In this document: piece by piece, positions 2,387 to 43,860 of the stretch
Numbering within the stretch: the first letter of the stretch is position 1
How the letters are laid out: every line of letters begins with the position of its first letter
Source of the DNA: Bacillota bacterium
GTDB lineage: Bacteria; Bacillota; Clostridia; Peptostreptococcales; Anaerovoracaceae
Length of the DNA: 64,000 nucleotides
Direction of reading: 5' to 3'
Assembly (NCBI GenBank): GCA_041797745.1
Contig: JBHBZU010000024.1
Coordinates: 17,407-81,406, forward strand
Notes under the pieces: generated by a model
Database searches by the model: none
What the model saw: the letters and a program-made list of their open reading frames with translations, nothing else
What the model was told of the DNA's origin: nothing
Position numbers and translations under genes: made by a program

Positions 2387-2797
2387 ATGCAAAAAGGAAG
2401 ATATAATACAAAACAAAGAGAAGAATTGCTAATCTATTTAAAAAAGGTAGCAGGAGAGCATATTACCGTAAATGATGTTTACAATCATTTTAAGGAAATA
2501 GGCGCAAACGTTGGAATGACAACGATTTATCGGCAACTGGAAAAGATGATTGATGAGGGTCTTGTGAAAAAATATGTGCTGGATTCTTCGTCAGCTGCCT
2601 GCTTTGAATATATAGAGGGAAATGTGGAATGTGCTGAACAGGGATGTACACATCTTAAATGCACAAGCTGCGGCAGGCTTATACATCTTCACTGCAATGA
2701 TTTGAAAGCTACTGAAAAACATCTGCTTGAAGAACATGATTTTAAGGTGAATATGGCACGAACGGTTATTTACGGTTTGTGCGAAAAGTGTAAGTAA
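2387..2797 (+). CDS. zur: Fur-family metalloregulator, probably Zur
   Basis: 136 aa with a winged-helix N-terminus (MTTIYRQLEKMIDEGLV) and two C-terminal CxxC pairs (CTSCG ... CEKCK). It sits directly upstream of a znuABC-type operon. RBS is GAGGTGA. Confidence 0.75.
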   Translation: MQKGRYNTKQREELLIYLKKVAGEHITVNDVYNHFKEIGANVGMTTIYRQLEKMIDEGLVKKYVLDSSSAACFEYIEGNVECAEQGCTHLKCTSCGRLIHLHCNDLKATEKHLLEEHDFKVNMARTVIYGLCEKCK

Positions 2798-2824
2798 AAA
2801 ATTATGAAAGGAGAGTAATTACCT

Positions 2825-3124
2825 ATGAATAAAAAACAGAAACGCAGAATAATTGCGCTGATAATATTAGTGGCTATTTTATCGGTAATGCTCCTTTCCA
2901 TAGCATATATTTTGGAACATTCAGGTCACGAATGTACAGGAAGTAAATGCCCTATTTGCGCGGCTATAGAACAATGTTGTGATAATCTTAAAATCCTTGA
3001 CACTGCTATTACCGCCTGCATTTTGGTATTCCTTTTTATGAGAGTTGTAAAATCGGAGCAATGCGTAAGTCTTGTGTATTTTAACAACTCATTAATTTCG
3101 CAAAAGGTAAGAATGAATAATTGA
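2825..3124 (+). CDS. Small Cys/His-rich two-TM membrane protein of unknown function
   Basis: 99 aa. RBS is AAAGGAGAG. There is an N-terminal TM helix, then HECTGSKCPICAAIEQCC, then a second hydrophobic segment. The gene is embedded between zur and znuA. Confidence 0.6.
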   Translation: MNKKQKRRIIALIILVAILSVMLLSIAYILEHSGHECTGSKCPICAAIEQCCDNLKILDTAITACILVFLFMRVVKSEQCVSLVYFNNSLISQKVRMNN

Positions 3125-8104: not shown

Positions 8105-9442
8105 ATGACAAATTTAATTGAAGTGGCAAAGAACCCAAGCTATAAAACAAATCACATAATGAAAACCATCTCCGTAGCCATATTTGTATCGCTGGCGTCA
8201 AGACTCAGCTTTGAAATTATAACGGACGGGTTTATTGTGGCGTTTTCTGTTGTGGTAATGGCTATCTTCATCTATTGTTATAATGACTTGTCTCCGGCAT
8301 TTATAGCCATGCTTTCAGGTGTGTTTTCACCTATGTTAAGAATTTTTTTGCTATATCTTGAGCGGGGCAATATAGAAGACAGTTTAAGCTCCGCCATGCC
8401 GGATGTAGCTTTCTTTTTCAGCTATGCTCTATTTTATACCTTTATTTACAAATGGATTATTTTAGATCCTAAAAGCATGAAAAACTTTCCTTTCGCAATA
8501 TTCTTTTGCGATGCTTTGTCAAATATATTCGAGATGACATGCAGAAGTATTTTGGCGGAGCATATGCTTGTTAATGTGCAGGTATTGCTGTATTTAGTTA
8601 TAATAGCATTAATTCGTACAGGTTTTATCATGTTTATTATAGTGGCAATAGAAGCCTATTCTTCTTTCCTTTTACAAATGGAACACGACGAAGAGTATAA
8701 GAAGCTTTTGACCCAAGCCTCCATTTTTGAAAGTGAGTTAAGACTCATGGAAAAGAATGCGGCGGAAATCGAAGATATTATGAAAAAGGCATATGACCTG
8801 CACAAATCATCCCAAGGAAGAACCGACATTCCTGAAAATTATAAAAGTGCTTTTTTAGACATAGCAAGAGAGGCACATGAAGTAAAGGGCGATTATATTT
8901 CAGCCATTGATATGCTTAGGGAAACCTATTCAGGAGTTGTCAGCGATGAGGGCATGAAGATGAGCGACATAATTGCTTTAGAACGTGCAAACGCCTTTTC
9001 CATCATTAGAAAAAACAACTTGAAGATTGAAATTTCCTTAAAACTGCAATGCGATTTTATGGTGATTGACAGTTTTCCGATGATGTCCATCATACGAAAT
9101 CTCCTTACAAATGCTGTGGAAGCCATAGGCAGAAAACCGGGAACTATCCAAGTACAGTTGTATCTTGAGAAAAAAGATAATGTGGCTGAAAATTATATAA
9201 TTAAAGTAAGGGATGATGGCAATGGAATTGCAGAAAATGAGTTAGACAGCGTTTTCATCCAATTTTACAGTACGAAGTTTAACCCTGAAACAGGAAATAT
9301 TCAGCGAGGCATAGGTCTTAGTTTGGTAAAAGATTATGTGGAAGAAATCTTCGGAGGGCGCGTTTGTGTAGAAAGCGAGCCTGAAAAGTTTGCGGAATTT
9401 ACCATTGTAATTCCTGCAAAGCGTGAGGAGGTAATTGCATGA
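8105..9442 (+). CDS. Membrane sensor histidine kinase, GlnK/YcbA-like
   Basis: About 6 N-terminal TM helices, a coiled linker and a GHKL ATPase domain (NLLTNAVEA, RDDGNGI, GIGLSLV). The stop overlaps the start of the response regulator. The start at 8105 is preferred on RBS spacing; 8087 is possible. Confidence 0.75.
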   Translation: MTNLIEVAKNPSYKTNHIMKTISVAIFVSLASRLSFEIITDGFIVAFSVVVMAIFIYCYNDLSPAFIAMLSGVFSPMLRIFLLYLERGNIEDSLSSAMPDVAFFFSYALFYTFIYKWIILDPKSMKNFPFAIFFCDALSNIFEMTCRSILAEHMLVNVQVLLYLVIIALIRTGFIMFIIVAIEAYSSFLLQMEHDEEYKKLLTQASIFESELRLMEKNAAEIEDIMKKAYDLHKSSQGRTDIPENYKSAFLDIAREAHEVKGDYISAIDMLRETYSGVVSDEGMKMSDIIALERANAFSIIRKNNLKIEISLKLQCDFMVIDSFPMMSIIRNLLTNAVEAIGRKPGTIQVQLYLEKKDNVAENYIIKVRDDGNGIAENELDSVFIQFYSTKFNPETGNIQRGIGLSLVKDYVEEIFGGRVCVESEPEKFAEFTIVIPAKREEVIA

Positions 9443-10278
9443 AATATTATGTGATAGACGACAATTTAGGAACAGCTAAGGGGCTGAAAAGTATTATCGG
9501 CGCGCGAAAAGGAGCTGTGGTCTGCGGCTTTGCAACAGACCCAAGGGACGCACTTAAGGATATTGACGTCGACAGACCGGAAGTTGTTTTAGTTGACCTC
9601 TTAATGCAGGAAATGGATGGAATCACCCTTGTAAAAGAGGTTAAGAAAAAGCACCCCAATATTTATTTTGTCATGATTTCAAAGATACAGGACAAAGAGA
9701 TGGTGCAGCAAGCCTACGAAGCAGGGATAGAATATTTTATACACAAACCCATAAATATGGTTGAAGTGGATAAAATCCTTTCTCATGTGGAGGAAAAGGC
9801 CATGCTTACAGGAATTATGCAAAACATCCAAAGCCTAGTAACCCATACGGAACCTGTCAAAGAAGAAAATATGCCAAAGCGCAGCTATGCAGACGAAATA
9901 GACATTATTTTGGGCAGTTTGGGTATGCTTGGGGAAAAGGGAACTAAAGAGATAAGAGAAGTATATGAGCTTGTGGCAAGACGAGGCGGAGCCTACAACA
10001 AGGAAATGTTAAGCGAGGTGGCGCAGGCTGAGGGCAGTACCGTTAGAAATGTAGAACAGCGAGTAAGACGCGCCATTAAAAAAGGGATGACAAATGCCGC
10101 CCACGTAGGTCTTGATGATTTCGACAATGAAACCTTTGCGGTTTATGCAAATTATGTATTTGATTTCACCAATCTCAAGGAAGAAATGAATTTCATATTA
10201 GGAAAGAGCAGCTGCGGAGGACGGGTAAATATAACAAGATTTATGGAGGGACTTATAGTTTATTCCAAAAATAAGTAA
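9439..10278 (+). CDS. Response regulator with a YcbB/GlnL-type output domain
   Basis: REC domain (VLVDLLMQEMDG, GIEYFIHKPIN) followed by a non-OmpR, non-NarL C-terminal domain (ILGSLGMLGEKGTKEI ... VRNVEQRVRRAIKKG). This matches B. subtilis GlnL (YcbB). Confidence 0.65.
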   Translation: MKYYVIDDNLGTAKGLKSIIGARKGAVVCGFATDPRDALKDIDVDRPEVVLVDLLMQEMDGITLVKEVKKKHPNIYFVMISKIQDKEMVQQAYEAGIEYFIHKPINMVEVDKILSHVEEKAMLTGIMQNIQSLVTHTEPVKEENMPKRSYADEIDIILGSLGMLGEKGTKEIREVYELVARRGGAYNKEMLSEVAQAEGSTVRNVEQRVRRAIKKGMTNAAHVGLDDFDNETFAVYANYVFDFTNLKEEMNFILGKSSCGGRVNITRFMEGLIVYSKNK

Positions 10279-20211: not shown

Positions 20212-20311
20212 GTGATATAATGACCCAAGTTACATAGTCATTTCATCATATCTTCATCTATAAATTATAATCAAAGATATGATATAATGACTGCTAAGTC
20301 AGTCATTATGT
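20212..20311 (+). repeat. Intergenic repeat family, locus A (modules X-spacer-Y)
   Basis: GTGATATAATGAC-CCAAGTTACATA-GTCATTTCATCATATCTTC, then the spacer ATCTATAAATTATAATCAAA, then GATATGATATAATGACTG-CTAAGT-CAGTCATTATGT. The same modules recur at 26.8, 28.8, 30.9, 35.2 and 38.3 kb. Confidence 0.85.
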
Positions 20312-20345: not shown

Positions 20346-21596
20346 ATGAAAGGAACTAAGGAGAAATTCAATTATTGTGTAAGATATGTGAGGGTTTTCT
20401 GTAAATGGCTCATTATTTCATTGGTGGTGGGAGCTATTGGCGGATTTGTAGGCTCTGTCTTTCATATGGCGGTAAGATACGCCACTGATTTTAGAATGGA
20501 AAACCCGATGTTGATATACCTTTTACCCTTAGGAGGCATATTTATTGCTGCTCTTTACGGCAGTTTCAAGGTTTCCGGAAAAGGAACCAACGATGTAATA
20601 GATTCCATCCACGATGGAGGAGATGTGCCGATTCTAATGGTTCCGGCTATATTTTTTGCCACAATTATCACCCATTGTTGCGGAGGTTCAGCAGGTAGAG
20701 AGGGAGCGGCGCTTCAAATAGGCGGAGGCATAGGAGGCTTTGTAGGCAAGACTTTTAAGCTGGACGAAAAGGAACAGAGATTGGCAATACTTTGCGGCAT
20801 GAGTGCGGTATTTGCGGCACTTTTCGGAACGCCTCTTACGGCGGCACTATTTCCGCTGGAGTTTGTTAGTGTTGGAGTTATCTACTATTCCGGTTTTTTG
20901 CCATGTATCTGCGCATCCCTTACGGCTTTTGAAATTTCCATCTTTCTTGGCTTACCCCCTACAAGATTTACCATCAATGCGGAGGTTCTGACTCCGGAAC
21001 TTATTATAAAGGTGGCTGTTTTGGCGGTGGGGGCTGCTATGGTTTCGATAATCTTTTGCCTTGCGATGAATGGCGGTGAAAAGCTGGCTAAAAAGATAGA
21101 AAACAGATATTTTAGAATAATCACAGGAGGCGTAGCGGTCATACTTTTGACTCTTTTGGCAGGGAATAACTGTTACAATGGTGCAGGTGGCGATATTATC
21201 AGTGTGGCAATTCAGGCAGGCGCTTGCCCTAAAGCAGCTTTCCTTTGGAAGATAGCTTTCACTGCCCTTACCCTATGCTTCGGTTACAAAGGGGGAGAAA
21301 TTGTCCCGACTTTCTTCATTGGCGCCTGCTTTGGCTGTGTGGCGGGACCGCTTCTCAATCTACCTGCGGGATTCGCGGCAGCTATGTCGCTGGCAGGAAT
21401 GTTCTGCGGTGCGGTGAATTGTCCGATTGCGTCAATCTTCTTGGGAGTGGAGCTCTTCGGTGCAGCCAATATGCCGTATATTGCAGTAATGTGCGGGGTT
21501 TCGTATATGCTTTCGGGATATTATGGTATCTACAAGAGCCAAAAAATCATATATTCAAAGACAAATGCAGAATATATAAACAGATTTACCAAGTAG
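20346..21596 (+). CDS. ClC family voltage-gated chloride channel / H+-Cl- exchanger homologue
   Basis: 416-aa polytopic protein with the ClC selectivity-filter-like blocks GSAGREGAALQIGG and GYKGGEIVPTFFIG. Confidence 0.8.
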   Translation: MKGTKEKFNYCVRYVRVFCKWLIISLVVGAIGGFVGSVFHMAVRYATDFRMENPMLIYLLPLGGIFIAALYGSFKVSGKGTNDVIDSIHDGGDVPILMVPAIFFATIITHCCGGSAGREGAALQIGGGIGGFVGKTFKLDEKEQRLAILCGMSAVFAALFGTPLTAALFPLEFVSVGVIYYSGFLPCICASLTAFEISIFLGLPPTRFTINAEVLTPELIIKVAVLAVGAAMVSIIFCLAMNGGEKLAKKIENRYFRIITGGVAVILLTLLAGNNCYNGAGGDIISVAIQAGACPKAAFLWKIAFTALTLCFGYKGGEIVPTFFIGACFGCVAGPLLNLPAGFAAAMSLAGMFCGAVNCPIASIFLGVELFGAANMPYIAVMCGVSYMLSGYYGIYKSQKIIYSKTNAEYINRFTK

Positions 21597-21681
21597 GTTG
21601 AACTTTCAAGGTTACATAATTAAGTTGCGAGGAAGCAAATTGAATATAGGCTACAATCAGGCGGACTAAATAAAACGAAAT

Positions 21682-21864
21682 AAAACTAATCATAGATGTA
21701 TTTGTGAACCTTGCCTAAAGATGATGTTAATTAAATTCGAATGGAAGTTTTAGCGGCTCACGATTAACTAAAGGATGAACTGAATAAAACCAATCATAGC
21801 TGAATTTGTGAACCTTGCCTAAAGATGATGTTAATTAAATACAGATGGAAGTTTTAGCGGTTCG
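21682..21864 (+). repeat. Tandem direct repeat, 2 copies, 104-bp period
   Basis: The 79-nt cores at 21682-21760 and 21786-21864 differ at 8 positions by manual alignment. The flanking (G/A)GTGAACTGAA(T/A)AAAA motif also recurs. Confidence 0.9.
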
Positions 21865-28796: not shown

Positions 28797-29016
28797 GATA
28801 TGATATAATGACTGCAAATGCAGTCATTATACAAAAATCATATAGCCGTGCGAATATTTTGCTTTCATAAACTTAAGCAAAAACGCACATGGCTGAATTA
28901 TATCATGTAAACATGATATAATGACCCCAAGTTACATAGTCATTTCATCATATCTTCCTATGTACCTTATATATTCAAAGATATGATATAATAGCCATAT
29001 AGCTAAATTAATATAC
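28797..29016 (+). repeat. Intergenic repeat family, locus B (modules Y-Z-W/X-spacer-degenerate X)
   Basis: Y is the 26-bp palindrome ATAATGACTGCA-AA-TGCAGTCATTAT (28805-28830). Z is a long hairpin (28833-28907). W is TTATATCATG-TAAA-CATGATATAA (28898-28921). An X hairpin follows to 28958, then a degenerate unit to 29016. Confidence 0.9.
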
Positions 29017-29048: not shown

Positions 29049-30854
29049 ATGAAACCGATAAACAAGCGTATCGCTGAATTAAGAAGATTGATGAATATGG
29101 AAAAGCTCGCCGCTTATGTGGTACCCACAGGCGATTACCATTCTTCTGAATATGCAGGAGAATATTTCAAGGAACGTGAATTTATTACAGGATTTACAGG
29201 GTCTGCAGGAGTTGCTGTTATAGGAAACAGCAGTGCGGGTCTTTGGACAGACGGAAGATACTTTTTGCAGGCGGAGGAAGAACTTGAGGATACCTGCATA
29301 AATCTTTTTAAAATGCGAAGACCCGGTGTATTAAAAGTTAGCGAATTTTTAGCCAAGACCCTTGGCAGCGGAGCTAGAATCGGGTTTGACGGAAAGACAA
29401 TTTCCGCAGAATTTGTTAATGAAATTGAAAATGAATTTTCTAAACTTGGAAAGTCTGTTAGCTTCATTCAAAAGAATCTGGTAAACGAGATTTGGGGAGA
29501 AAGACCGAAACTTTCTTGCGAAAAAGTCGAAGTTTATCCCGAAAATATGGCAGGGCGCAGTCGGGAAGAAAAGCTGCAAGCTTTGGAAAGGAAGCTTGAA
29601 GAGCTTCAAGTGGATACCTTTGTGCTTTCCACTTTAGACGATATAGCGTATCTTTTGAATATTCGAGGCAATGACGTGCAATGCAGTCCGATGGTACTTA
29701 GTTATTTTGTCATGGATGAGGGTGCAAAAATCCTTTTTGCACAGAAAGCAGCTTTTCACGGTACAGGTGAGGCGGCGAAAAAGTCTCTTGAAAAAGCAGG
29801 AGTAGAGCTTCGGGAATATGACGAAGTCTATGAATATCTAAAAGAAAATATTTCGGGAAAGAGCGTGGCAATAGACATCGAAAAGTCCAATTATGAGCTG
29901 GTACAGACTGTAGCTGAAGCAGAGGAAGTAGTGAATATTCATAATTACAGTCTTATTCCCAAATACATCAAAAATATAACAGAAATCGAAAATATGGTGT
30001 GTGCACACCTAAAAGACGGTGTGGCGGTAACAAAGTGGATATACTGGTTAAAACGCAAAATAAAGGAAGCTGATGGAGAAGCCCTTACTGAAATTTCAGT
30101 AGCGGAAAAACTTTATGAGTTTCGCAGTCAGCAGGAAAATTTTCGCGGGGAAAGCTTTGAAGCCATTATGGGCTACGGTCCTCACGGTGCTATTGTTCAC
30201 TATTGCGCTACGTCTCAAAGTAATGCGAAGTTGGAGCCTAAAGGCTTGCTTTTGGCAGATACGGGAGGGCAGTATTTAGAGGGCACTACGGATGTGACTC
30301 GTACCATTGCGCTGGGCTCTCTTTCAGAAGAGGAGAAAAAACATTATACAGGAGTTCTCTGCGGACATCTTGCCTTGCAGCAGGCTGTATTCAAGGAGGG
30401 TACTAGCGGTGCCGAACTGGATCAGCTGGCGCGGAAGCCCATACGGGCTCAAGGCTTGGACTTTAACCATGGAACCGGACACGGTGTGGGTGTTTATTTA
30501 AATTGTCATGAGGAGCCTGTGAGGATATCTTTTGGTATGGCTGATGACATTCCGAATTTTGCCGCAGGCATGATTACTTCCGATGAACCGGGGATATATA
30601 TTGAGGGGAAGCACGGTATCAGAATTGAAAATTTGCTGGTTTGCATGGAAGCAGAGACAGGAAAGGAGGGATACCTGAAGTTTGAGCCCTTGACCCTTAT
30701 CCCTTATGAAATTGAGGCTTTGGATTTGTCAATTATGGACAAGGATAGCCGCAGGGCATATAATGAATATCAGGCATTGGTTTATGAAAGGCTGTCACCA
30801 TATCTTAAAGCAGATGAGAAAGAGTGGCTGAAAGAAGCAACACGAAAAATTTGA
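29049..30854 (+). CDS. pepP: Xaa-Pro aminopeptidase (aminopeptidase P, M24B)
   Basis: About 600 aa with N-terminal creatinase/prolidase-type domains and a C-terminal pita-bread domain carrying the metal ligands (DTGGQY, HGTGHGVG, EPG, IRIEN). The start is either ATG 29049 or TTG 29034. Confidence 0.85.
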   Translation: MKPINKRIAELRRLMNMEKLAAYVVPTGDYHSSEYAGEYFKEREFITGFTGSAGVAVIGNSSAGLWTDGRYFLQAEEELEDTCINLFKMRRPGVLKVSEFLAKTLGSGARIGFDGKTISAEFVNEIENEFSKLGKSVSFIQKNLVNEIWGERPKLSCEKVEVYPENMAGRSREEKLQALERKLEELQVDTFVLSTLDDIAYLLNIRGNDVQCSPMVLSYFVMDEGAKILFAQKAAFHGTGEAAKKSLEKAGVELREYDEVYEYLKENISGKSVAIDIEKSNYELVQTVAEAEEVVNIHNYSLIPKYIKNITEIENMVCAHLKDGVAVTKWIYWLKRKIKEADGEALTEISVAEKLYEFRSQQENFRGESFEAIMGYGPHGAIVHYCATSQSNAKLEPKGLLLADTGGQYLEGTTDVTRTIALGSLSEEEKKHYTGVLCGHLALQQAVFKEGTSGAELDQLARKPIRAQGLDFNHGTGHGVGVYLNCHEEPVRISFGMADDIPNFAAGMITSDEPGIYIEGKHGIRIENLLVCMEAETGKEGYLKFEPLTLIPYEIEALDLSIMDKDSRRAYNEYQALVYERLSPYLKADEKEWLKEATRKI

Positions 30855-30925
30855 TGGCATAACGACCCCAATTTCACATAGTCGTTTCGCCATATCTACA
30901 TCTGTAAATTATAATCAGAGATATG
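30853..30925 (+). repeat. Intergenic repeat family, locus E (X-spacer-partial unit)
   Basis: GATGGCATAACGAC-CCCAATTTCACATA-GTCGTTTCGCCATATCTAC, then ATCTGTAAATTATAATCAGA, then GATATGGTACAAC. The pepP stop codon TGA (30852-30854) overlaps the first bases of the unit. Confidence 0.8.
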
Positions 30926-30973
30926 GTACAACTAAATAATATCAAGCAGAACAGAATTATTATGGGTGAAAAT

Positions 30974-33144: not shown

Positions 33145-35163
33145 ATGACAAGAGGACAGAAAAGAGATTTAATAAAAATTTTTATATCCCTTAGTCTCAT
33201 GGTCTTTGGAATACTGACAGAAAACCTCTTTCCTACGGAAAAGCTACCCCTTGTGACAGTGGCAGGAACGGAGATAAATTTAGGGATAGCAGCTATCTAT
33301 GTGACAGCTTACTTAACAGCAGGCTTCGAAACTTTAGGGAAAGCCCTCAATGGAATCTTGAGGGGGCAGATGCTTGATGAAAATTTTCTCATGACAATCG
33401 CGTCCATAGGCGCTTTGCTTCTTCAAGATTACAAAGAGGGCGTGGCAGTAATGCTCTTTTACAATGTAGGGGAACTTTTTGAGGACTATGCTGTAAACAA
33501 ATCAAGAAAATCTATCAAAGACCTTATGGACATCAGACCGGATTATGCAAATTTATACAATGAGCAGACAGGCGAAGTCATGGAGGTGGATCCTTACGAA
33601 GTTAAAGTGGGAGATCGGATTCAGATTAAACCGGGAGAAAGAGTCCCTTTGGATGCGAAAATATTAAAGGGAAACTCCTCCGTTCAAACAGCGGCACTGA
33701 CAGGCGAGTCCGTTCCAAGAGATTTGGGCGAGGGGGATACAATACTGTCAGGCTTCATCAATATGACAGGCGTGCTTTTGGCGGAAGTACAAAAGGACTT
33801 TGAGGAGTCCACAGCCTCTAAAATTTTAGAGTTGGTGGAACAGGCGGCGGACAGCAAGGCAGGCACCGAACGCTTCATTACTAAATTTGCCAGAATATAT
33901 ACTCCATGTGTGGTTTTTGCGGCAGCAGCTCTTGCAATAATACCGTCGGTGCTTTTCGGGGAACCCTTTGGAACTTGGAGCTACAGGGCAATGGTGTTTC
34001 TGGTAATATCCTGCCCATGCGCATTGGTAATTTCCGTACCCCTCAGCTTTTTCGGCGGCATTGGCGCAGCTTCTAAAGCAGGTATTCTTGTTAAGGGCAG
34101 CAATTTTTTAGAAGTTATGAGTCAGGTGGACACTGTTGTATTTGACAAGACAGGCACTCTTACCACAGGAGAATTTAAAGTGACGGAGGTTATTCCCGCT
34201 AAATCTGGAACCGGTACGGCAATGGAAGATGGAGAGCAGCTTTTTCGAGATGAGATTATCAATCTGGCGGCACATGCAGAATGTTTCTCACCTCATCCCA
34301 TTGCAGCTTCCATTCGCGCTGCCTACGGCAAGGAAATTCCTCAAGAAAAGCTTCGTGAGGTGGAAGATATTGCAGGTTACGGCATTCGTGCCAAAGTTAT
34401 CTCCGACAGCGATACTTTGAGAATGGCGGAAAGACAGGTATTAGTCGGCAATTTGAGATTTATGAGACAGCAGACTGATTTAATTTCCAAAGCAGCGGAG
34501 GAAGCTACCGCGGAAGCAGAAAAATCGGGAGTTACGGGCACACTGGTATATGTTGCGGTTGACGGGAAATATAGGGGACTTATTGTCATAGGTGACGAGT
34601 TGAAACGGGATACCGCCTATGCAATCAACGGACTTTTAGGAATGGGAATAGACAATATAGTCATGCTTACAGGCGACAGGCGAAAGAATGCGGAAAAGCT
34701 TGCAGGTCTTGTGGGAATCAAGGCTGAAAACGTTTACGCAGAGCTTCTCCCCGCAGATAAACTTTCAAAGGTTGAAGAAATTATTGAAAGAGGAAAAATA
34801 AACAAGGCAAACCATGCTTTAGTTTATGTGGGAGACGGCTTAAACGATGCGCCTGTGCTTGCAAGGGCAGATGTGGGCATTGCCATGGGGAGTTTAGGTT
34901 CAGACGCAGCTATAGACGCGGCAGACGCAGTTATTATGACGGATGAGCCATCGAAACTGTTGACTCTTTTTGCTATTTCTAAAAAAACTTTAGGCATTGC
35001 AAAGGAAAATATAGCATTTGCACTAATTATAAAGTTTCTTGTGTTAGCTCTGGGGGCTGTGGGCTTGGCAGGAATGTGGGCGGCAGTTTTTGCTGATGTA
35101 GGAGTGTCTATGTTGGCAATATTAAATTCTATGCGAACTTTGAATCTGAGAGATATGGTCTAA
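33145..35163 (+). CDS. cadA: Heavy-metal translocating P1B-type ATPase (Cd/Zn/Co type), lacking an N-terminal HMA domain
   Basis: Motifs: CPC in TM6 (VISCPCALVIS), DKTGTLT phosphorylation site, TGES-like LTGESVP, GDGLNDAP hinge. The last codons and the stop lie inside repeat unit X1 of locus C. Confidence 0.9.
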   Translation: MTRGQKRDLIKIFISLSLMVFGILTENLFPTEKLPLVTVAGTEINLGIAAIYVTAYLTAGFETLGKALNGILRGQMLDENFLMTIASIGALLLQDYKEGVAVMLFYNVGELFEDYAVNKSRKSIKDLMDIRPDYANLYNEQTGEVMEVDPYEVKVGDRIQIKPGERVPLDAKILKGNSSVQTAALTGESVPRDLGEGDTILSGFINMTGVLLAEVQKDFEESTASKILELVEQAADSKAGTERFITKFARIYTPCVVFAAAALAIIPSVLFGEPFGTWSYRAMVFLVISCPCALVISVPLSFFGGIGAASKAGILVKGSNFLEVMSQVDTVVFDKTGTLTTGEFKVTEVIPAKSGTGTAMEDGEQLFRDEIINLAAHAECFSPHPIAASIRAAYGKEIPQEKLREVEDIAGYGIRAKVISDSDTLRMAERQVLVGNLRFMRQQTDLISKAAEEATAEAEKSGVTGTLVYVAVDGKYRGLIVIGDELKRDTAYAINGLLGMGIDNIVMLTGDRRKNAEKLAGLVGIKAENVYAELLPADKLSKVEEIIERGKINKANHALVYVGDGLNDAPVLARADVGIAMGSLGSDAAIDAADAVIMTDEPSKLLTLFAISKKTLGIAKENIAFALIIKFLVLALGAVGLAGMWAAVFADVGVSMLAILNSMRTLNLRDMV

Positions 35164-35425
35164 TGACCCCATTTTGCATAGTCATTTCACCATATCTTCA
35201 TTTGAAAATTATGATGGGAGATATGGTATAATAACTCCAAGTTGCATAGCTATTTCACCATATCTTCCTCTGTAAAATATACAATAAAAGATATGGTCTA
35301 ATGAATGCAAAAGCAGTCATTAGACCAAAATCATATAGCTGTGCGAATATTTTGCTTCGTAAACTTCGGCAAAATCGCACATGGCTGAATTAGACCATGT
35401 AAACAAGGTCTAATAACCCAAACAA
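35152..35425 (+). repeat. Intergenic repeat family, locus C (X-spacer-X-spacer-Y-Z-W-partial X)
   Basis: X1 35152-35199, X2 35220-35268, Y 35290-35326, Z 35327-35399, W 35390-35413, then a truncated X that runs into the RBS of the next gene. This locus uses the GGTCTAAT variant in place of GATATAAT in all its modules. Confidence 0.9.
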
Positions 35426-35444
35426 TGACAGGAGGGCGAAGAAT

Positions 35445-38222
35445 ATCGGTAACATAACTATAGGCATTCTTGCTCATGTAGATGCAGGAAAAACAACTTT
35501 ATCAGAGGCTATTCTTTATCAGACAGGTACCATCCGAAAGGCAGGGAGAGTTGACCATAAAGACGCCTTTCTCGATACGAATTTTATTGAGCGTGCCAGG
35601 GGAATTACAGTATTCTCCAAGGAGGCTCGTTTTGTATTGGGGAAAAAGCAATTTACTCTAATTGATACCCCGGGTCATGCGGATTTTTCCACCGAGATGG
35701 AGAGAACCCTTTCGGTAATGGACTATGCCATTTTAGTTATAAGCGGTTCAGAGGGGATTCAGAGCCATACTATGACGCTGTGGAAGCTGTTTGAGAGCTA
35801 CAAGCTTCCCGTATTTATTTTTGTGAATAAGATGGATAAGGGAGAAATAGATATTCAAATGCTTAAACATCAGATGAATGTTTCACTGGGTGGAGGTCTC
35901 GTTCAAATGAGAGGGGCGGAACCTGAAGATATGGAAGAACTGGCAATACATTCGGAAAGAATGCTGGAGGAGTTTTTAGAAACAGGTTCTGTTCGGGATG
36001 AGCTGATTCAAGAGGAGATTTTGAACAGACAAATTTTTACGGTTTCCTATGGTTCAGCTCTTAAAATGGAGGGTATAGAAGAATTCCTAAAGGTGATGGA
36101 GCGTTACACCGACGAAACTTTGTGGGAAGAAGAACAAGATAGGGATGAGAAATATTCAGAAAAAAATCATTCGGAAAAAAACACATCAACAGACAAGGTC
36201 TTAGATAAGCAGGGTGTTATAGGAAAAGTATATAAGATTACAAGGGACAAAACAGGAAACCGGCAAACTCATTTAAAAGTGCTTTCCGGTATTCTTAAAA
36301 ATAAAATGCTTCTTAAGGGAAAAACTTCAGGTGGCGAAACTTGGGAAGAAAAGGCAGAACAAATCAGGCTTTACAACAGCACGGGTTTTGAAGCCTTGGG
36401 AGAAGCTAAGGCAGGCATGATAGTAGCAGTAACAGGCTTATCACAGACCTTTGCAGGAGCGTATATAGGTACTGAAGCGGCGGATGTGGATGAAAGTAAG
36501 CCTTTTCTACAGCCTGCACTAACCTACAGAGTAAATTTCGAGGGTGGAGTTGACCTCAAAATCGGTTTCAGTAAGCTTAAGCTTTTAGAAGAGGAACATC
36601 CGTCCTACCATTTTCTTTGGGGTGAAGAACATTGTGAAATTCACGTTCAGGTAATGGGAGACATGGAACTTGAAGTGTTAAAAGCAATCATTAAAGAAAG
36701 GTTCGATTGGGATACCAACTTTGACAAGGGCAGTATTCTTTACAAGGAAACTGTTGCAAAGGCGGTTATCGGCATAGGACACTATGAACCGCTTCGACAC
36801 TATGCTGAAGTTCAGTTGCTTTTGGAGCCGCTCCCTGCAGGAAGCGGTTTAGAATGTGGCTCGTTAATCAGTGAAGACCGTCTTGCAAAGAATTGGCAAC
36901 GTTTGATTCTTACCCACCTTATGGAAAAGTCTCATAGAGGAACTTTAACCAATTCGGAAATCACCGACTTACGTATCAGCATTGTGGCAGGTAAAGCCAG
37001 CAATAAGCATACCGAGGGAGGAGATTTCAGAAAGGCTACTTATACAGCCATAAGACAGGGTTTGCGAAAGCTGCTTGAATCGGGCGACATGGTGCTATTG
37101 GAACCAATTTACAGTTTTTCCATAGAAATTGACAACCAATATCTTGGTAGAGTAATGACAGATATGGAACGCTTGGGGGCGAAGTGCAAAATGCCTGAAC
37201 TTATGGATGACGGCGTTACAGGTGTAATTCGGGGAACGGGACCTGTGGCTACCCTTAGAGACTATCAGAGAGAAATCAATACTTTCGCTCGCGGTAGCGG
37301 AAGATTCGTAGCAACTTTGGACGGTTATGCGCCTTGTCACAACCAAGAGGAAGTGGTGACTGCCATTGGTTATGACCCTGACAGCGATTCTCGCAACAGA
37401 GCAGGTTCGGTGTTTTGCGAACAGGGGGCAGGGGTTTATGTAGACTGGCAGGAAGTTGATGAGCTGGCGCAGGCTGAAAATGATTACATTCTCGGAGAGG
37501 ATGGCGATGTAAGACAGCTTGCGGGTGAAGAAAAAATTGCTTTAGCCTTAAAAACCTCAGGAGGAGAGGTGACTGCCAAGGAACTGGAGGAGATTTTCCA
37601 ACGGACTTACGGAAAGTCCAAGAGGGATGAGCAACTGATGAAAGAAAGAAAATCTCGGAGTTCAAGGCTAAAATCCGGAGAAATAGAAAACTTTCCTATG
37701 CCAAAGTGGCGTAAAGATGATAAGAAAAGTTCCAATGTGAAATCAAAGGAAGAACTCTTGGTGATAGACGGTTACAATGTAATCTTTGCGTGGGAAGAAT
37801 TAAAAGCTTTGGCAAAGGAAAATATCGACTCCGCAAGAGAAGCCCTTATTGAAATTGTCAGAAATTATTCGGGAGCTGAGGCTTTGCCTGCGGTTTTGGT
37901 GTTTGACGGATATAAGTTGGCGGACAATATCGGAAGCAGCCAAAGCTTTGAAAAGGTGACGGTAGTGTATACTAAAGAGGGAGAAACGGCAGACACCTAT
38001 ATTGAAAAGAAAATCTATCAGGAGGGCAGTTCTAAAACGATAACTGTGGTAACCTCCGATAAACTTGTGCAGATGATGGCGTCGGGAGATGGAGCCATAA
38101 GACTTTCTTCACGAGAATTTCTTGAAGAAGTTCAAAATTCCGTAGGAAAGATTAGAAACAGACTTTCAAATCAAAAATTACCCTCGAATAAACCGCTGGA
38201 GAGTAAATTTGAAAAGTCCTGA
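35445..38222 (+). CDS. TetM/EF-G-like translational GTPase fused to a C-terminal Rae1/YacP-type NYN ribonuclease domain (start codon uncertain)
   Basis: The frame is open from 35403. G1 AHVDAGKTT (35472-35498) lies upstream of the tracked TTG at 35637. G3 DTPGH, G4 NKMD, G5 GSALK. Ribosomal-protection/EF-G-like domains II-V (GHYEPLRHYAEV, LLEPIYSFSIEI). A K/R/E-rich linker, then LLVIDGYNVIFAW ... VVYTKEGETADTYIEK ... VVTSDKLVQ, which matches B. subtilis YacP/Rae1 blocks. GGAGG at 35431-35435 lies 9 nt before an in-frame ATC at 35445. No ATG, GTG or TTG exists in frame before 35637. Confidence 0.75.
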   Translation: MGNITIGILAHVDAGKTTLSEAILYQTGTIRKAGRVDHKDAFLDTNFIERARGITVFSKEARFVLGKKQFTLIDTPGHADFSTEMERTLSVMDYAILVISGSEGIQSHTMTLWKLFESYKLPVFIFVNKMDKGEIDIQMLKHQMNVSLGGGLVQMRGAEPEDMEELAIHSERMLEEFLETGSVRDELIQEEILNRQIFTVSYGSALKMEGIEEFLKVMERYTDETLWEEEQDRDEKYSEKNHSEKNTSTDKVLDKQGVIGKVYKITRDKTGNRQTHLKVLSGILKNKMLLKGKTSGGETWEEKAEQIRLYNSTGFEALGEAKAGMIVAVTGLSQTFAGAYIGTEAADVDESKPFLQPALTYRVNFEGGVDLKIGFSKLKLLEEEHPSYHFLWGEEHCEIHVQVMGDMELEVLKAIIKERFDWDTNFDKGSILYKETVAKAVIGIGHYEPLRHYAEVQLLLEPLPAGSGLECGSLISEDRLAKNWQRLILTHLMEKSHRGTLTNSEITDLRISIVAGKASNKHTEGGDFRKATYTAIRQGLRKLLESGDMVLLEPIYSFSIEIDNQYLGRVMTDMERLGAKCKMPELMDDGVTGVIRGTGPVATLRDYQREINTFARGSGRFVATLDGYAPCHNQEEVVTAIGYDPDSDSRNRAGSVFCEQGAGVYVDWQEVDELAQAENDYILGEDGDVRQLAGEEKIALALKTSGGEVTAKELEEIFQRTYGKSKRDEQLMKERKSRSSRLKSGEIENFPMPKWRKDDKKSSNVKSKEELLVIDGYNVIFAWEELKALAKENIDSAREALIEIVRNYSGAEALPAVLVFDGYKLADNIGSSQSFEKVTVVYTKEGETADTYIEKKIYQEGSSKTITVVTSDKLVQMMASGDGAIRLSSREFLEEVQNSVGKIRNRLSNQKLPSNKPLESKFEKS

Positions 38223-38253: not shown

Positions 38254-38399
38254 AATGTGATATAATGACCCCAAGCAGTCAGTATATAAAATCATATAGC
38301 CGTGGGAATATTTTGCTTTTGTAAACTTCAGCAAAATCGCACATGGCTGAATTATATCATGTTTACATGATATAATAACTGCATAGTTTACTGATAAAA
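38254..38399 (+). repeat. Intergenic repeat family, locus D (degenerate Y-Z-W-partial X)
   Basis: Z 38288-38361. W is TTATATCATG-TTTA-CATGATATAA (38352-38375). A truncated X follows and ends at the RBS of the next gene. Confidence 0.9.
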
Positions 38400-38416: not shown

Positions 38417-40120
38417 ATGAAAATTAAATTTTGTGGAGCATGTAGCGGGGTTACAGGCTCATGCCATCTTATTACAACTGATAAATACAGGATTTTGTTG
38501 GACTGTGGACAGTTTCAGGGAAACAAGGCAACAGAGTCTTTGAATTATGAGCCATTTCCTTTTAATCCGAGCGAGATAGATTTTATGATTTTGAGCCATG
38601 CTCACATTGACCACTGTGGGCGTATTCCTCTTTTAGTAAAGCAGGGTTTCAAGGGTAAGATTTATTGTACAGACGCTACGGCAGATCTTCTTGAAGTTAT
38701 GCTTAAGGACAGCGGATACATTCATGAAAAGGAAGCGGAGTGGCAGAACAGAAAAAATGAAAGAGCAGGGCGTCAGAAGATAGAGCCTCTCTACACATAT
38801 CAGGACGCATTGGATTCACTTCATGGCGTTACTCCTGTTTTGTATGACCAGCTTGTTGAAGTAAATGAGCAGATTAAAATTGTTTTTAATGACGCAGGAC
38901 ATATTTTAGGTTCTGCCATTACAGAACTTTGGGTTACAGAAGAGAATACTACTTCCAAAGTGGTATTTTCAGGAGACATAGGCATGACTGAAAGACCTAT
39001 TTTAAGAGACCCTGTAATTATTAAAAAGGCTGACTATGTTATCATGGAAACTACTTATGGCAACAGACTCCATGAAAGTAACGGCGAGAGCTTGCAAAAG
39101 CTTTTAGACATTGTGATTAAAACCAACAGAAGAGGCGGAAATGTGGTTATTCCGTCCTTTGCAGTAGGTCGTACACAGGAACTGCTTTATGAGTTCAGTA
39201 GATTTTATGAAAATTATCCTGAATACAGAAAGGATTTAGATAAAATTACGGTTTACGTTGACTCACCGATGGCTACTACAGCTACTGAAGTATTCAAACG
39301 CAATGCGCAGGTATTTGATGAAGAAACAAAGGCTATTATCACCAGCGGTACCAATCCTTTGGACTTCCAGAATCTGAAATTTACCAGAACTTCCGACGAA
39401 TCAAGAGCTATCAACTTTGACTCTACGCCAAAAGTTATCATTTCCGCCAGCGGTATGTGCGAAGCGGGTCGTATCAGACACCACCTAAAGCACAATCTGT
39501 GGGATTCCCGTAACAGCATAGTCTTTGTAGGCTATCAGGCAGAGGGGACTTTAGGAAAGCAGTTGGTTAACGGTTTGGATACCGTATCTCTTTTCGGTGA
39601 AGAAATAAAGGTTCGTGCTGAAATTTACAGCTTGGAGGGCTTTTCGGGTCATGCAGACAGAGACGGACTCTATGCATGGCTCAACGGTTTTGTCCAAAAA
39701 CCTAAGCATGTATTCTTAATTCACGGTGAAACAGATTCCAAAAATGATTTTTCGGATTATGTTCGTGAAAAAATGGGATATGAGTGTACGGTGGTAAACG
39801 GTATCAGCGAGTATGAACTCCAGCAGGATCAAGTGGTTTCCATGGACGAAGAAATGCGCGAGCAGTTCAGCGAAGAAGCTATTTACGATATGAAGACACG
39901 TATTGCAGATATAAACGAGGGGCTTCAGAGCATTCTTTACAACACAAATCTTGCAGTTGGAGCAAATCCGTCACCTGAAAGACTGGCAGAGATTAACAAT
40001 CTTATTTTAGAGCTCGAAAAGCAATATATCAATTTAGGTTCTGCGGTTACAAAAGAGGACAGACCTAATGTTGAAGCAGACGCGGCTGCTCAAAACGCAA
40101 GCAATCGTAAAGAGGCTTAA
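38417..40120 (+). CDS. Beta-CASP family metallo-beta-lactamase-fold ribonuclease (CPSF73/Ysh1-like) with a C-terminal extension
   Basis: MBL motif HAHIDHCG, beta-CASP region, and a C-terminal H motif (FSGHAD, IHGE). About 100 additional C-terminal residues look coiled. RBS is GGGAGG. Confidence 0.8.
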   Translation: MKIKFCGACSGVTGSCHLITTDKYRILLDCGQFQGNKATESLNYEPFPFNPSEIDFMILSHAHIDHCGRIPLLVKQGFKGKIYCTDATADLLEVMLKDSGYIHEKEAEWQNRKNERAGRQKIEPLYTYQDALDSLHGVTPVLYDQLVEVNEQIKIVFNDAGHILGSAITELWVTEENTTSKVVFSGDIGMTERPILRDPVIIKKADYVIMETTYGNRLHESNGESLQKLLDIVIKTNRRGGNVVIPSFAVGRTQELLYEFSRFYENYPEYRKDLDKITVYVDSPMATTATEVFKRNAQVFDEETKAIITSGTNPLDFQNLKFTRTSDESRAINFDSTPKVIISASGMCEAGRIRHHLKHNLWDSRNSIVFVGYQAEGTLGKQLVNGLDTVSLFGEEIKVRAEIYSLEGFSGHADRDGLYAWLNGFVQKPKHVFLIHGETDSKNDFSDYVREKMGYECTVVNGISEYELQQDQVVSMDEEMREQFSEEAIYDMKTRIADINEGLQSILYNTNLAVGANPSPERLAEINNLILELEKQYINLGSAVTKEDRPNVEADAAAQNASNRKEA

Positions 40121-43790: not shown

Positions 43791-43860
43791 GGTTTTGACT
43801 TTAGCTTTGGCTTTAATTTTGGTTTTGACTTTGGTTTTAGCTTTAAGTCAATCTCGGTTT
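43791..43860. repeat. Hexamer-periodic T-tract repeat in the tig-clpP spacer
   Basis: GGTTTTGACTTTAGCTTTGGCTTTAATTTTGGTTTTGACTTTGGTTTTAGCTTTAAGTCAATCTCGGTTT has T3-4 tracts every 6 nt. It contains TTTGACT twice (43794-43800, 43824-43830) and the inverted repeat TTGACTT/AAGTCAA (43825-43831 / 43845-43851). Confidence 0.8.

Follow-up and report, generated by a model that had tools for sequence, protein, structure and literature searches.

Module Z and palindrome W upstream of three genes in an Anaerovoracaceae genome belong to a multi-copy repeat carrying promoter-like boxes

In a 64,000-nucleotide stretch of an Anaerovoracaceae genome (the window), a long hairpin, module Z, followed by a palindrome, W, recurs upstream of three plus-strand genes, raising the question of whether these genes share a regulatory leader or carry copies of a more widely spread repeat. 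The three copies precede pepP (locus B), a GTPase-NYN gene (locus C) and a beta-CASP RNase gene (locus D). They are located where the preliminary description had placed them and form a single family of direct repeats (D3) on the plus strand at 28834-28925, 35326-35417 and 38288-38379. When up to three mismatches were allowed, each conserved half of Z+W matched the window exactly three times, always on the plus strand, against expectations of 0.00 and 0.14 in shuffled windows, indicating that essentially none of these copies is expected by chance. Folding recovered the previously described stems (AGCC/GGCT, GTGCG/CGCAC and TTTTGC/GCAAAA) in all three copies, with energies of -16.6 to -18 kcal/mol and z-scores of -2.8 to -4.1 relative to shuffled sequences, while the reverse strand folds with similar stability (-17.1 kcal/mol). 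W proved to be a true palindrome at 28897-28922, 35389-35414 and 38351-38376. The distance between the element and the ribosome-binding site (RBS), earlier given as 40-130 nt, is about 16-115 nt; for example, W ends at 35414 and 38376 in loci C and D, where the RBS lies at 35430 and 38404, respectively.

Z and W do not stand alone in these intergenic regions. The 16-mer GATATGATATAATGAC or its reverse complement matched the window 16 times against 0.86 expected, and apart from two of the weakest matches (three mismatches), all fall in four of six intergenic mosaic regions. Five modules can be read in these regions, to which repeat families D1, D2 and D4 also belong. H1 consists of GATATGATATAATGAC-loop-GTCATTTCATCATATC and is accompanied by an A/T-rich linker; H2 consists of TATAAT, a short palindrome body and ATTATA; and W reads ATTATAyCATG-TAAA-CATGrTATAAT, that is, an inverted box copy followed by a direct TGnTATAAT box, with Z as the fifth module. 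In a full unit, a TRTGnTATAAT box is followed by the remainder of H2, a 4-nt spacer, the approximately 65-nt Z and W. H1, linker, H2, Z and W are combined differently at the six window loci, as in a mosaic repeat. This embedding of Z+W in a larger modular repeat had been overlooked at first reading.

At locus B, the left -16/-10 box TATGATATAAT (28799-28809, plus strand; TATAAT at 28804-28809) resembles a native extended -10 promoter, and the promoter scan read it as TTAAAA-18-TATAAT with a TG extension (10 of 12 matches). In the fold, this -10 box pairs with an inverted copy in palindrome H2, TATAATGACTGC-aaat-GCAGTCATTATA (28804-28831). Module Z follows on the plus strand at 28834-28899 as an imperfect hairpin (28844-28894) with conserved flanks, reaching -18 kcal/mol, a z-score of -4.1 and 108.9 bits with covariance model R1. 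Palindrome W, ATTATATCATG-TAAA-CATGATATAAT (28897-28922), provides a second TGnTATAAT box in its 3' arm (TATAAT at 28917-28922). Further plus-strand modules, recognized from repeat families D1 and D2 and from motif matches, occupy 28910-28992. Hairpin H1 (28910-28954) is joined by a linker (28955-28979) to a third box, GATATGATATAAT (28980-28992), located 57 nt upstream of the pepP start at 29049.

Locus C opens with two plus-strand H1 hairpins with linkers (35152-35264), recognized from repeat families and motif matches at 35152-35196 and 35220-35264, the first of which overlaps the stop codon of an ATPase gene ending at 35163. The left box GATATGGTCTAAT (35290-35302) and palindrome H2 (35295-35326), together spanning 35290-35326, both carry the TCTAAT/ATTAGA variant. 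They are followed by Z on the plus strand at 35327-35388 (hairpin 35337-35386; -17.2 kcal/mol; 102.1 bits with R1) and by W, ATTAGACCATG-TAAA-CAAGGTCTAAT (35389-35414), which ends 16 nt before the RBS AGGAGGG (35430-35436) and whose arms show compensatory changes relative to loci B and D. At locus D, a native-type box, TGTGATATAAT (38256-38266), and an imperfect H2-like palindrome (38260-38288) together span 38256-38288. Z occupies 38288-38350 on the plus strand (hairpin 38298-38348; -16.6 kcal/mol; 108.4 bits with R1), and W, ATTATATCATG-TTTA-CATGATATAAT, evident in both sequence and fold, lies at 38351-38376; from its end it is 28 nt to the RBS GGGAGG and 41 nt to the ATG at 38417. In addition, a mosaic unit lacking Z, composed of H1, linker, box GATATGATATAAT and H2 (20213-20309, plus strand), is found upstream of a ClC channel gene starting at 20346, and a degenerate H1, linker and box module (30860-30932, plus strand; families D1 and D2) lies between pepP and the acetate kinase gene.

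To place the element beyond the window, the 19-mer AAAANCGCACATGGCTGAAT, corresponding to the 3' arm of Z, was searched as an exact match in one genome per species across 185,579 species. Of the 39 loci retrieved, 37 came from two metagenome-assembled genomes (MAGs), 'Anaerovoracaceae bacterium Meta-D_MAG_129' and 'uncultured Oscillospiraceae ERP107106_co1_264', and the other two were chance matches; true copies number 41. The two MAGs are closely related (PyrH 96% identical, syntenic DNA about 75% identical) and harbor at least 24 and at least 16 copies, and the 64-kb window contains three, which is the pattern of a dispersed repeat. Many copies lie at contig ends, and Logan contigs from the window species start within Z, also identifying Z as a dispersed repeat and accounting for the assembly breaks at these sites in the window organism. 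A covariance model built from 34 distinct copies recovered all of them in 306 kb and added only three divergent or truncated copies, in a sample biased by the exact 3'-arm match and by the 8-kb pieces taken from fragmented MAGs. In JGI metagenomes, a W-anchored pattern gave no match and a Z pattern gave one chance match, and viral contigs, plasmids and phages yielded no match to the Z family and thus no sign that known mobile replicons carry it. Rfam 15 at gathering score reported nothing for Z or W in the window and only tRNAs and an unrelated FMN riboswitch in 20 Z-bearing loci, and at E-values up to 5 nothing overlapped Z or W.

The position of Z relative to genes is highly regular. In 32 of 34 cases, Z points in the same direction as the ORF nearest to it on the downstream side, and the other two cases involve ORFs that are short and doubtful. 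The gene on the upstream side runs in the same direction or is divergent (nine divergent cases), and none of the 34 copies lies securely between convergent genes. The Z family is multi-copy, occurs only in intergenic 5' regions, runs in the direction of the downstream gene and is not specific to the three window genes. The suggestion that the element couples pepP, the GTPase-NYN gene and the beta-CASP RNase gene into a regulon is not supported, as related genomes have this element in front of a tRNA and of at least 30 genes with unrelated functions. The 20 downstream proteins considered belong to translation, cell wall synthesis, C1 metabolism, regulation, peptidases and nucleotide metabolism, with no shared function. 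The downstream genes include those for AlaRS, PyrH, sigma-54, PBP1, FTHFS, MurC, an M29 peptidase, an acyl-CoA ligase, a solute-binding protein, a RelA/SpoT small alarmone synthetase, an OB-HD nuclease and a PNP nucleoside phosphorylase, together with LysR, AraC, GntR and OmpR-type regulators, and a three-unit array is situated directly upstream of tRNA-Arg(CCG). Given such a mixed set of downstream genes, with a tRNA among them, the presence of two RNases among the three window genes carries no weight and looks like a coincidence. The tempting inference of a three-gene RNA-processing regulon is thereby removed for the window, and the genes are coupled only loosely, through many promoters sharing one module.

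The units carry promoter-like boxes. Their TRTGnTATAAT core, of sigma-A type, corresponds to the textbook Gram-positive -16/-10 (extended -10) promoter. Across the family, the left boxes read TATG or TGTG-n-TATAAT and are preceded by unique DNA, in which a match of at least 4 of 6 positions to TTGACA occurs at a distance of 16-18 bp in 13 of 29 loci, compared with 11% in the background. As this -35 is locus-specific and lies in unique DNA, the left box looks like the promoter of the gene itself. In 30 of 31 family units, the left -10 box has an inverted copy as its pairing partner. The right boxes, provided by W, read CATG-n-TATAAT with a weak -35 (CTGAAT), and in 16 of 30 cases they lie 28-116 nt before a start codon preceded by a Shine-Dalgarno (SD) sequence, the longest distances being due to further intervening modules. 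The direct nTATAAT boxes at the two ends of a unit usually agree, as do the internal inverted copies; as L041, L027 and L022 illustrate, box agreement follows the hairpin partners and not the two unit ends. Units in the MAGs also form two- and three-unit arrays and contain alternative H2 bodies and extra modules, and the last Z of an array is truncated variably (L044 stops after CGCACA and L013 after GCGATA). Some copies, such as L035 and L027, have no W and lie 17-35 nt before the SD sequence, so that they must be located in the 5' untranslated region.

Comparison with relatives of the window organism indicates what the promoters look like when the element is missing. The window beta-CASP protein is about 70% identical to its counterparts in Ihubacter, Aminipila, Zhenpiania and Anaerovorax. 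In relatives with beta-CASP proteins 77-87% identical, which are closer to the window organism than MAG_129 is, Z is absent from about 115 kb of sequence, including when filters were switched off, and pepP, the GTPase-NYN gene and the beta-CASP gene are not preceded by it. Upstream of beta-CASP, these closer relatives instead carry plain TGnTATAAT promoters, TGTGGTATAAT, TGTAGTATAAT or TGTGTTATAAT. The left box of locus D matches this native promoter form, and the element comes after the box. No filled/empty polymorphism was detected among seven assemblies of the window species, all of which have the same sequence at the three loci.

The two MAGs share four orthologous Z positions (L012/L013, L020/L037 at pyrH, L047/L041 and L043/L017), and since these positions have been kept, the elements are not all recent. 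The retention of sites between species whose flanks are only about 75% identical shows these elements to be old and stable, which agrees with selection and neutrality alike. Outside the ascertained 19-mer, Z copies are 0.85-0.90 identical within a genome, 0.75-0.79 between species and 0.80-0.86 in orthologous pairs, so that copies are more similar to their paralogues than to their orthologues, and each Z-bearing species has its own loop variant. Within each genome, the Z family shows concerted evolution or repeated replacement, as in active repeat families. An interim view that Z is far more conserved than coding DNA was withdrawn, as the between-species identity resembles that of the flanking genes.

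The explanation that we favor, with moderate confidence and taken as a whole, is that Z and W are modules of a lineage-specific mosaic interspersed repeat that is predicted to insert at native boxes, to supply a replacement -10 box and to be recognized through Z. The unit would sit immediately downstream of the -10 box of the gene itself, a position suggested by the left box having its own -35 in unique DNA and by the plain promoter in relatives without the element. W would then be a candidate replacement extended -10 promoter at the 3' end of the unit, typically tens of nucleotides before the RBS. Such a replacement promoter would keep the gene expressed, and insertions placed and oriented in this way would therefore be tolerated or useful. 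Transcripts starting at the native box would include Z and W in a structured leader, whereas those starting at the W box would not; Z is thus probably part of a long leader whenever transcription begins at the upstream native -10 box. Z itself may be the conserved core hairpin of the repeat, and the simplest reading of its fixed bulges and loop is that they could be recognized as DNA by the process that copies or homogenizes the family. The near-perfect upkeep of the H2 and W palindromes is not something that a simple 'spare promoter' model requires.

The covariation data separate the palindromes from Z. In W, 338 of 341 cells over 31 copies are Watson-Crick, and 5 of 11 pairs have changed on both sides. 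Covariation of W and H2 is strong, and both palindromes are built from -10-box sequence. At orthologous loci of the MAGs, compensatory switches are seen among TTATACC...GGTATAA, TTATATC...GATATAA and TTGTACC...GGTACAA. The arms may stay complementary through selection or, by another known route, through palindrome-templated mutation. For Z, the covariation of loop-closing pairs that had been reported from the window copies comes down to one cell (locus D) among 34 family members and is reached by 83 of 500 shuffles, which is background. The wider expectation of covariation in Z fared no better in the larger alignment of 34 sequences, where 1 of 15 pairs is doubly changed, a level not above background. 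Ascertainment accounts for part of the invariance in the 3' arm of Z, because copies were found by an exact match to that arm. As the W-anchored metagenome pattern, designed to avoid this bias, added no copies, ascertainment limits the covariation test for Z. G-U outnumbers A-C by 4 to 1, but these five informative cells are too few for a choice of strand.

These data bear directly on the alternative that Z is a cis-acting structured RNA leader recognized by a trans-acting factor, which would bring dozens of genes into one post-transcriptional regulon, for example for mRNA stability or processing. Such a leader would account for the strict orientation bias and the exclusively 5' placement, and the promoter-like left box would place Z in the transcript, as would the position of the W-less L035 and L027 copies so close to the SD sequence. 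Hairpin stability above that of shuffled sequence, the conserved loop and bulges with their species-specific loop variants, and the four positions retained between two species also agree with it. However, the downstream genes, a tRNA among them, have no common function; units occur in tandem arrays and truncated copies; pairing in Z shows a single doubly changed pair and background covariation at the loop; the G-U and A-C counts favor no strand, and both strands fold equally well; and closer relatives lack the element at these promoters, and Rfam has no match for it. An RNA leader with this function therefore seems unlikely, although it is the alternative that best withstands the evidence. Of the earlier proposal of a shared 5' leader, the conserved and strongly oriented 5' element stands, whereas a fixed regulatory leader is not supported, given the arrays, the truncated copies, the assembly breaks and the absence from closer relatives.

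There is a further reading, in which the -10 hexamer is held in the H2 and W hairpins, a lineage-specific factor reads Z, and the hairpin or cruciform gates dozens of promoters. Such gating, which we consider quite improbable, could have come about through a promoter-seeking element or a selected architecture, and it would, with the same low probability, amount to a global control circuit built by transposition. The complementary palindromes at orthologous loci, the concerted loop variants of Z and the strict, co-oriented 5' placement are compatible with gating.

A more specific mechanism for the favored mosaic repeat would be that the unit is the remnant of a hairpin-dependent, single-strand transposon of the IS200/IS605 PATE or REP/RAYT type, inserted in a strand-specific manner 3' of TATAAT, with H2 and W providing the pairing between guide and cleavage site. 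On the left, the unit is bounded precisely by a -10 box, and its right end closes with the same box; each box is complementary to an internal inverted copy, and Z is an imperfect hairpin with fixed bulges and strict orientation; head-to-tail arrays would be expected from reinsertion after the terminal TATAAT. Nevertheless, examination of the copies revealed no transposase, no clear terminal inverted repeat and no unambiguous target-site duplication, and no Y1 transposase or RAYT gene was noticed near the copies, whose loci are partly annotated. In addition, inverted pairs of Z, as known from REPINs, were not seen, further repeat modules beyond the right box leave the right end without a sharp border, and phages, plasmids and viruses gave no match. 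We accordingly give this mechanism only a slight chance.

The probability is slighter still that Z is a double-stranded DNA operator or architectural site for a global factor or nucleoid protein, positioned at about -35 to -100 of the W promoter. Z does lie directly upstream of TGnTATAAT at a fixed distance with its 3' end overlapping the -35 position, it has long dyad symmetry, and its sequence is conserved more than its pairing. However, sites of global regulators are normally short and degenerate, and not near-identical blocks of 65 nt; the asymmetric bulges in the dyad would not be needed by a symmetric dimer; copying, and not the independent evolution of sites, is suggested by the assembly breaks, the arrays, the truncated copies and the concerted evolution; and no candidate regulator was identified. 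Least probable is an antisense small RNA, fired leftwards from the inverted TGnTATAAT in the 5' arm of W, copying the complement of Z and stopping at H2: the minus strand of W has an equally good CATGrTATAAT box and folds as well as the plus strand, and the minus strand of H2 at locus B, with its T-rich tail, was called terminator-like, but the T-tract after H2 is not kept in other species, W-less copies exist, and the strict co-orientation with the downstream gene is left unexplained.

Several other candidates were rejected. A leader peptide encoded by ORF ATGGCTGAATTATACCATGTAAACATGGTATAA (MAELYHVNMV), covering the end of Z and W, has no SD sequence, and its frame or stop is lost in L041 and L022. 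The GG-N10-GC arrangement of a sigma-54 promoter is absent from Z, and the plus-strand U-tract of an intrinsic terminator or attenuator is absent after Z and W. An integron attC site, a CRISPR array, a T-box and an invertible promoter are at odds with the context, the repeat/spacer logic, the size and the constant orientation.

Among known systems, several families of short repeats resemble the Z family in part. The pneumococcal and streptococcal BOX elements, made up of boxA, a variable number of boxB and boxC, and the enterobacterial BIMEs are likewise short, non-coding and modular in number and combination. As in the Z family, stable stem-loops are predicted and there are dozens of intergenic copies, and BOX-type repeats can influence downstream expression (PMC3049150). 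However, there is no sequence similarity to BOX or BIMEs, and the palindromes of the Z family are made from the promoter -10 box. According to Table 1 of PMC3049150, BOX, RUP and SPRITE are enriched between convergent genes; the Z family is the opposite, being essentially never located between such genes and nearly always co-oriented with the downstream gene. The neisserial Correia elements and the 'putative mobile promoters' (Matus-Garcia, Nijveen and van Passel 2012) are repeats upstream of unrelated genes that contain sigma-70-type promoters or give rise to them (PMC3575422). They are common to related species, and their means of movement are mostly unknown (PMC3575422). Correia elements, found in Neisseria, have 26-bp terminal inverted repeats and a TA duplication, whereas no such ends are evident in the Z family; the putative mobile promoters are a bioinformatic class and no defined family, for which the Z family would qualify. 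REP/REPIN elements (RAYT) and IS200/IS605 PATEs are, like Z, strand-specific, multi-copy, bulged hairpins with species variants and homogeneity within a genome. REPs, however, are 20-40 nt long and typically lie 3' of genes, in inverted pairs and flanking a RAYT gene, whereas Z is about 65 nt long and lies 5' of genes, with no inverted pairs seen and no Y1 gene in the DNA examined; at multi-copy loci, the copies of Z always have direct orientation, which sets them apart from REPs and REPINs.

The Z family is apparently undescribed so far, and it offers a clean case of the propagation of a promoter-associated repeat in an uncultured Clostridia lineage of the gut or of digesters. It is unusual in being exclusively 5' and co-oriented and in holding -10 boxes in palindromes that stay complementary through mutation. 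Should the boxes be active, the family would be an example of a repeat that occupies promoters without silencing genes, and it would provide a natural set of near-identical portable promoter cassettes.

The H1 and linker modules, but not Z, resemble an Rfam family, RF02952 (dfrA-dnaX RNA motif). Three full-length matches to this family score 36.3, 36.1 and 31.0 bits, all under the gathering score of 48.6; the first two are the H1 modules of locus C, and a match below threshold lies at positions 28924-28992 of locus B. The sequence AUUUCAuCAUA...UAUGaUAUAAU is common to the RF02952 motif and to the H1 3' arm, the linker and the next box.

The mosaic repeat, to which the hairpin Z (~65 nt) and the palindromes H2 and W belong, comprises more parts than are visible in the window. 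In Anaerovoracaceae bacterium Meta-D_MAG_129, a Z-bearing relative, additional repeated modules lie 3' of W in presumed 5' UTRs (loci L019, L028, L030, L031, L036, L039, L040, L042, and L047-L049), examples being AACCTCACGGCGTAAGCC... and AAAACATATCTKAGCGAT...GCTGCCGC. The parts also occur in arrays: at L025, a locus from a related genome, three H2-Z-W units (2530-3018) are located directly 5' of tRNA-Arg(CCG), with the second Z interrupted by an assembly gap (Ns).

For the H1 module, the dfrA-dnaX RNA family (RF02952) aligned over its full length to the H1 3' arm, the linker, and the next -10 box at 28924-28992, 35166-35232, and 35234-35302 of the window, with scores of 31-36 bits, short of the 48.6 bits set as the family's gathering score. 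At its end, the Rfam consensus carries a promoter-like box of its own, UAUGaUAUAAU. At 35152-35167, the P-type ATPase gene (33145-35163) runs into an H1 hairpin: its TAA stop codon is part of the hairpin's 5' arm (GATATGGTCTAATGAC), so the repeat covers the last bases of a coding sequence.

The GTPase-NYN gene, which follows one of the window's Z+W copies, seems to use a non-canonical ATC at 35445 as its start codon. In the stretch 35430-35640, an RBS (AGGAGGG) is positioned 8 nt before this codon, and translation from 35445 yields a GTP_EFTU match at residues 4-222. The P-loop (GILAHVDAGKTT) is encoded upstream of the first ATG/GTG/TTG, at 35637, so that automatic 861-aa calls truncate the G domain. 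Homologues in relatives start with ATG (MKFIDIGILAHVDAGKTT). In one relative (L051), the GTPase-NYN and beta-CASP genes are separated by an inserted PDDEXK_2 (Rpn/transposase-like) gene (9109-9858), at the position occupied by Z+W in the window.

Other repeats were also observed in the window. An NhaC-type Na+/H+ antiporter gene (22036) is preceded by two ~86-nt copies with 90% identity and a period of 104 nt (21674-21863), which possibly represent a tandem cis-regulatory RNA; an Rfam search of this pair returned no match, even with E-values up to 1. In addition, a short 6-nt-periodic run of GGTTTT/GACTTT/AGCTTT/GGCTTT (43791-43846; repeat family D6) is flanked by the trigger factor and clpP genes.
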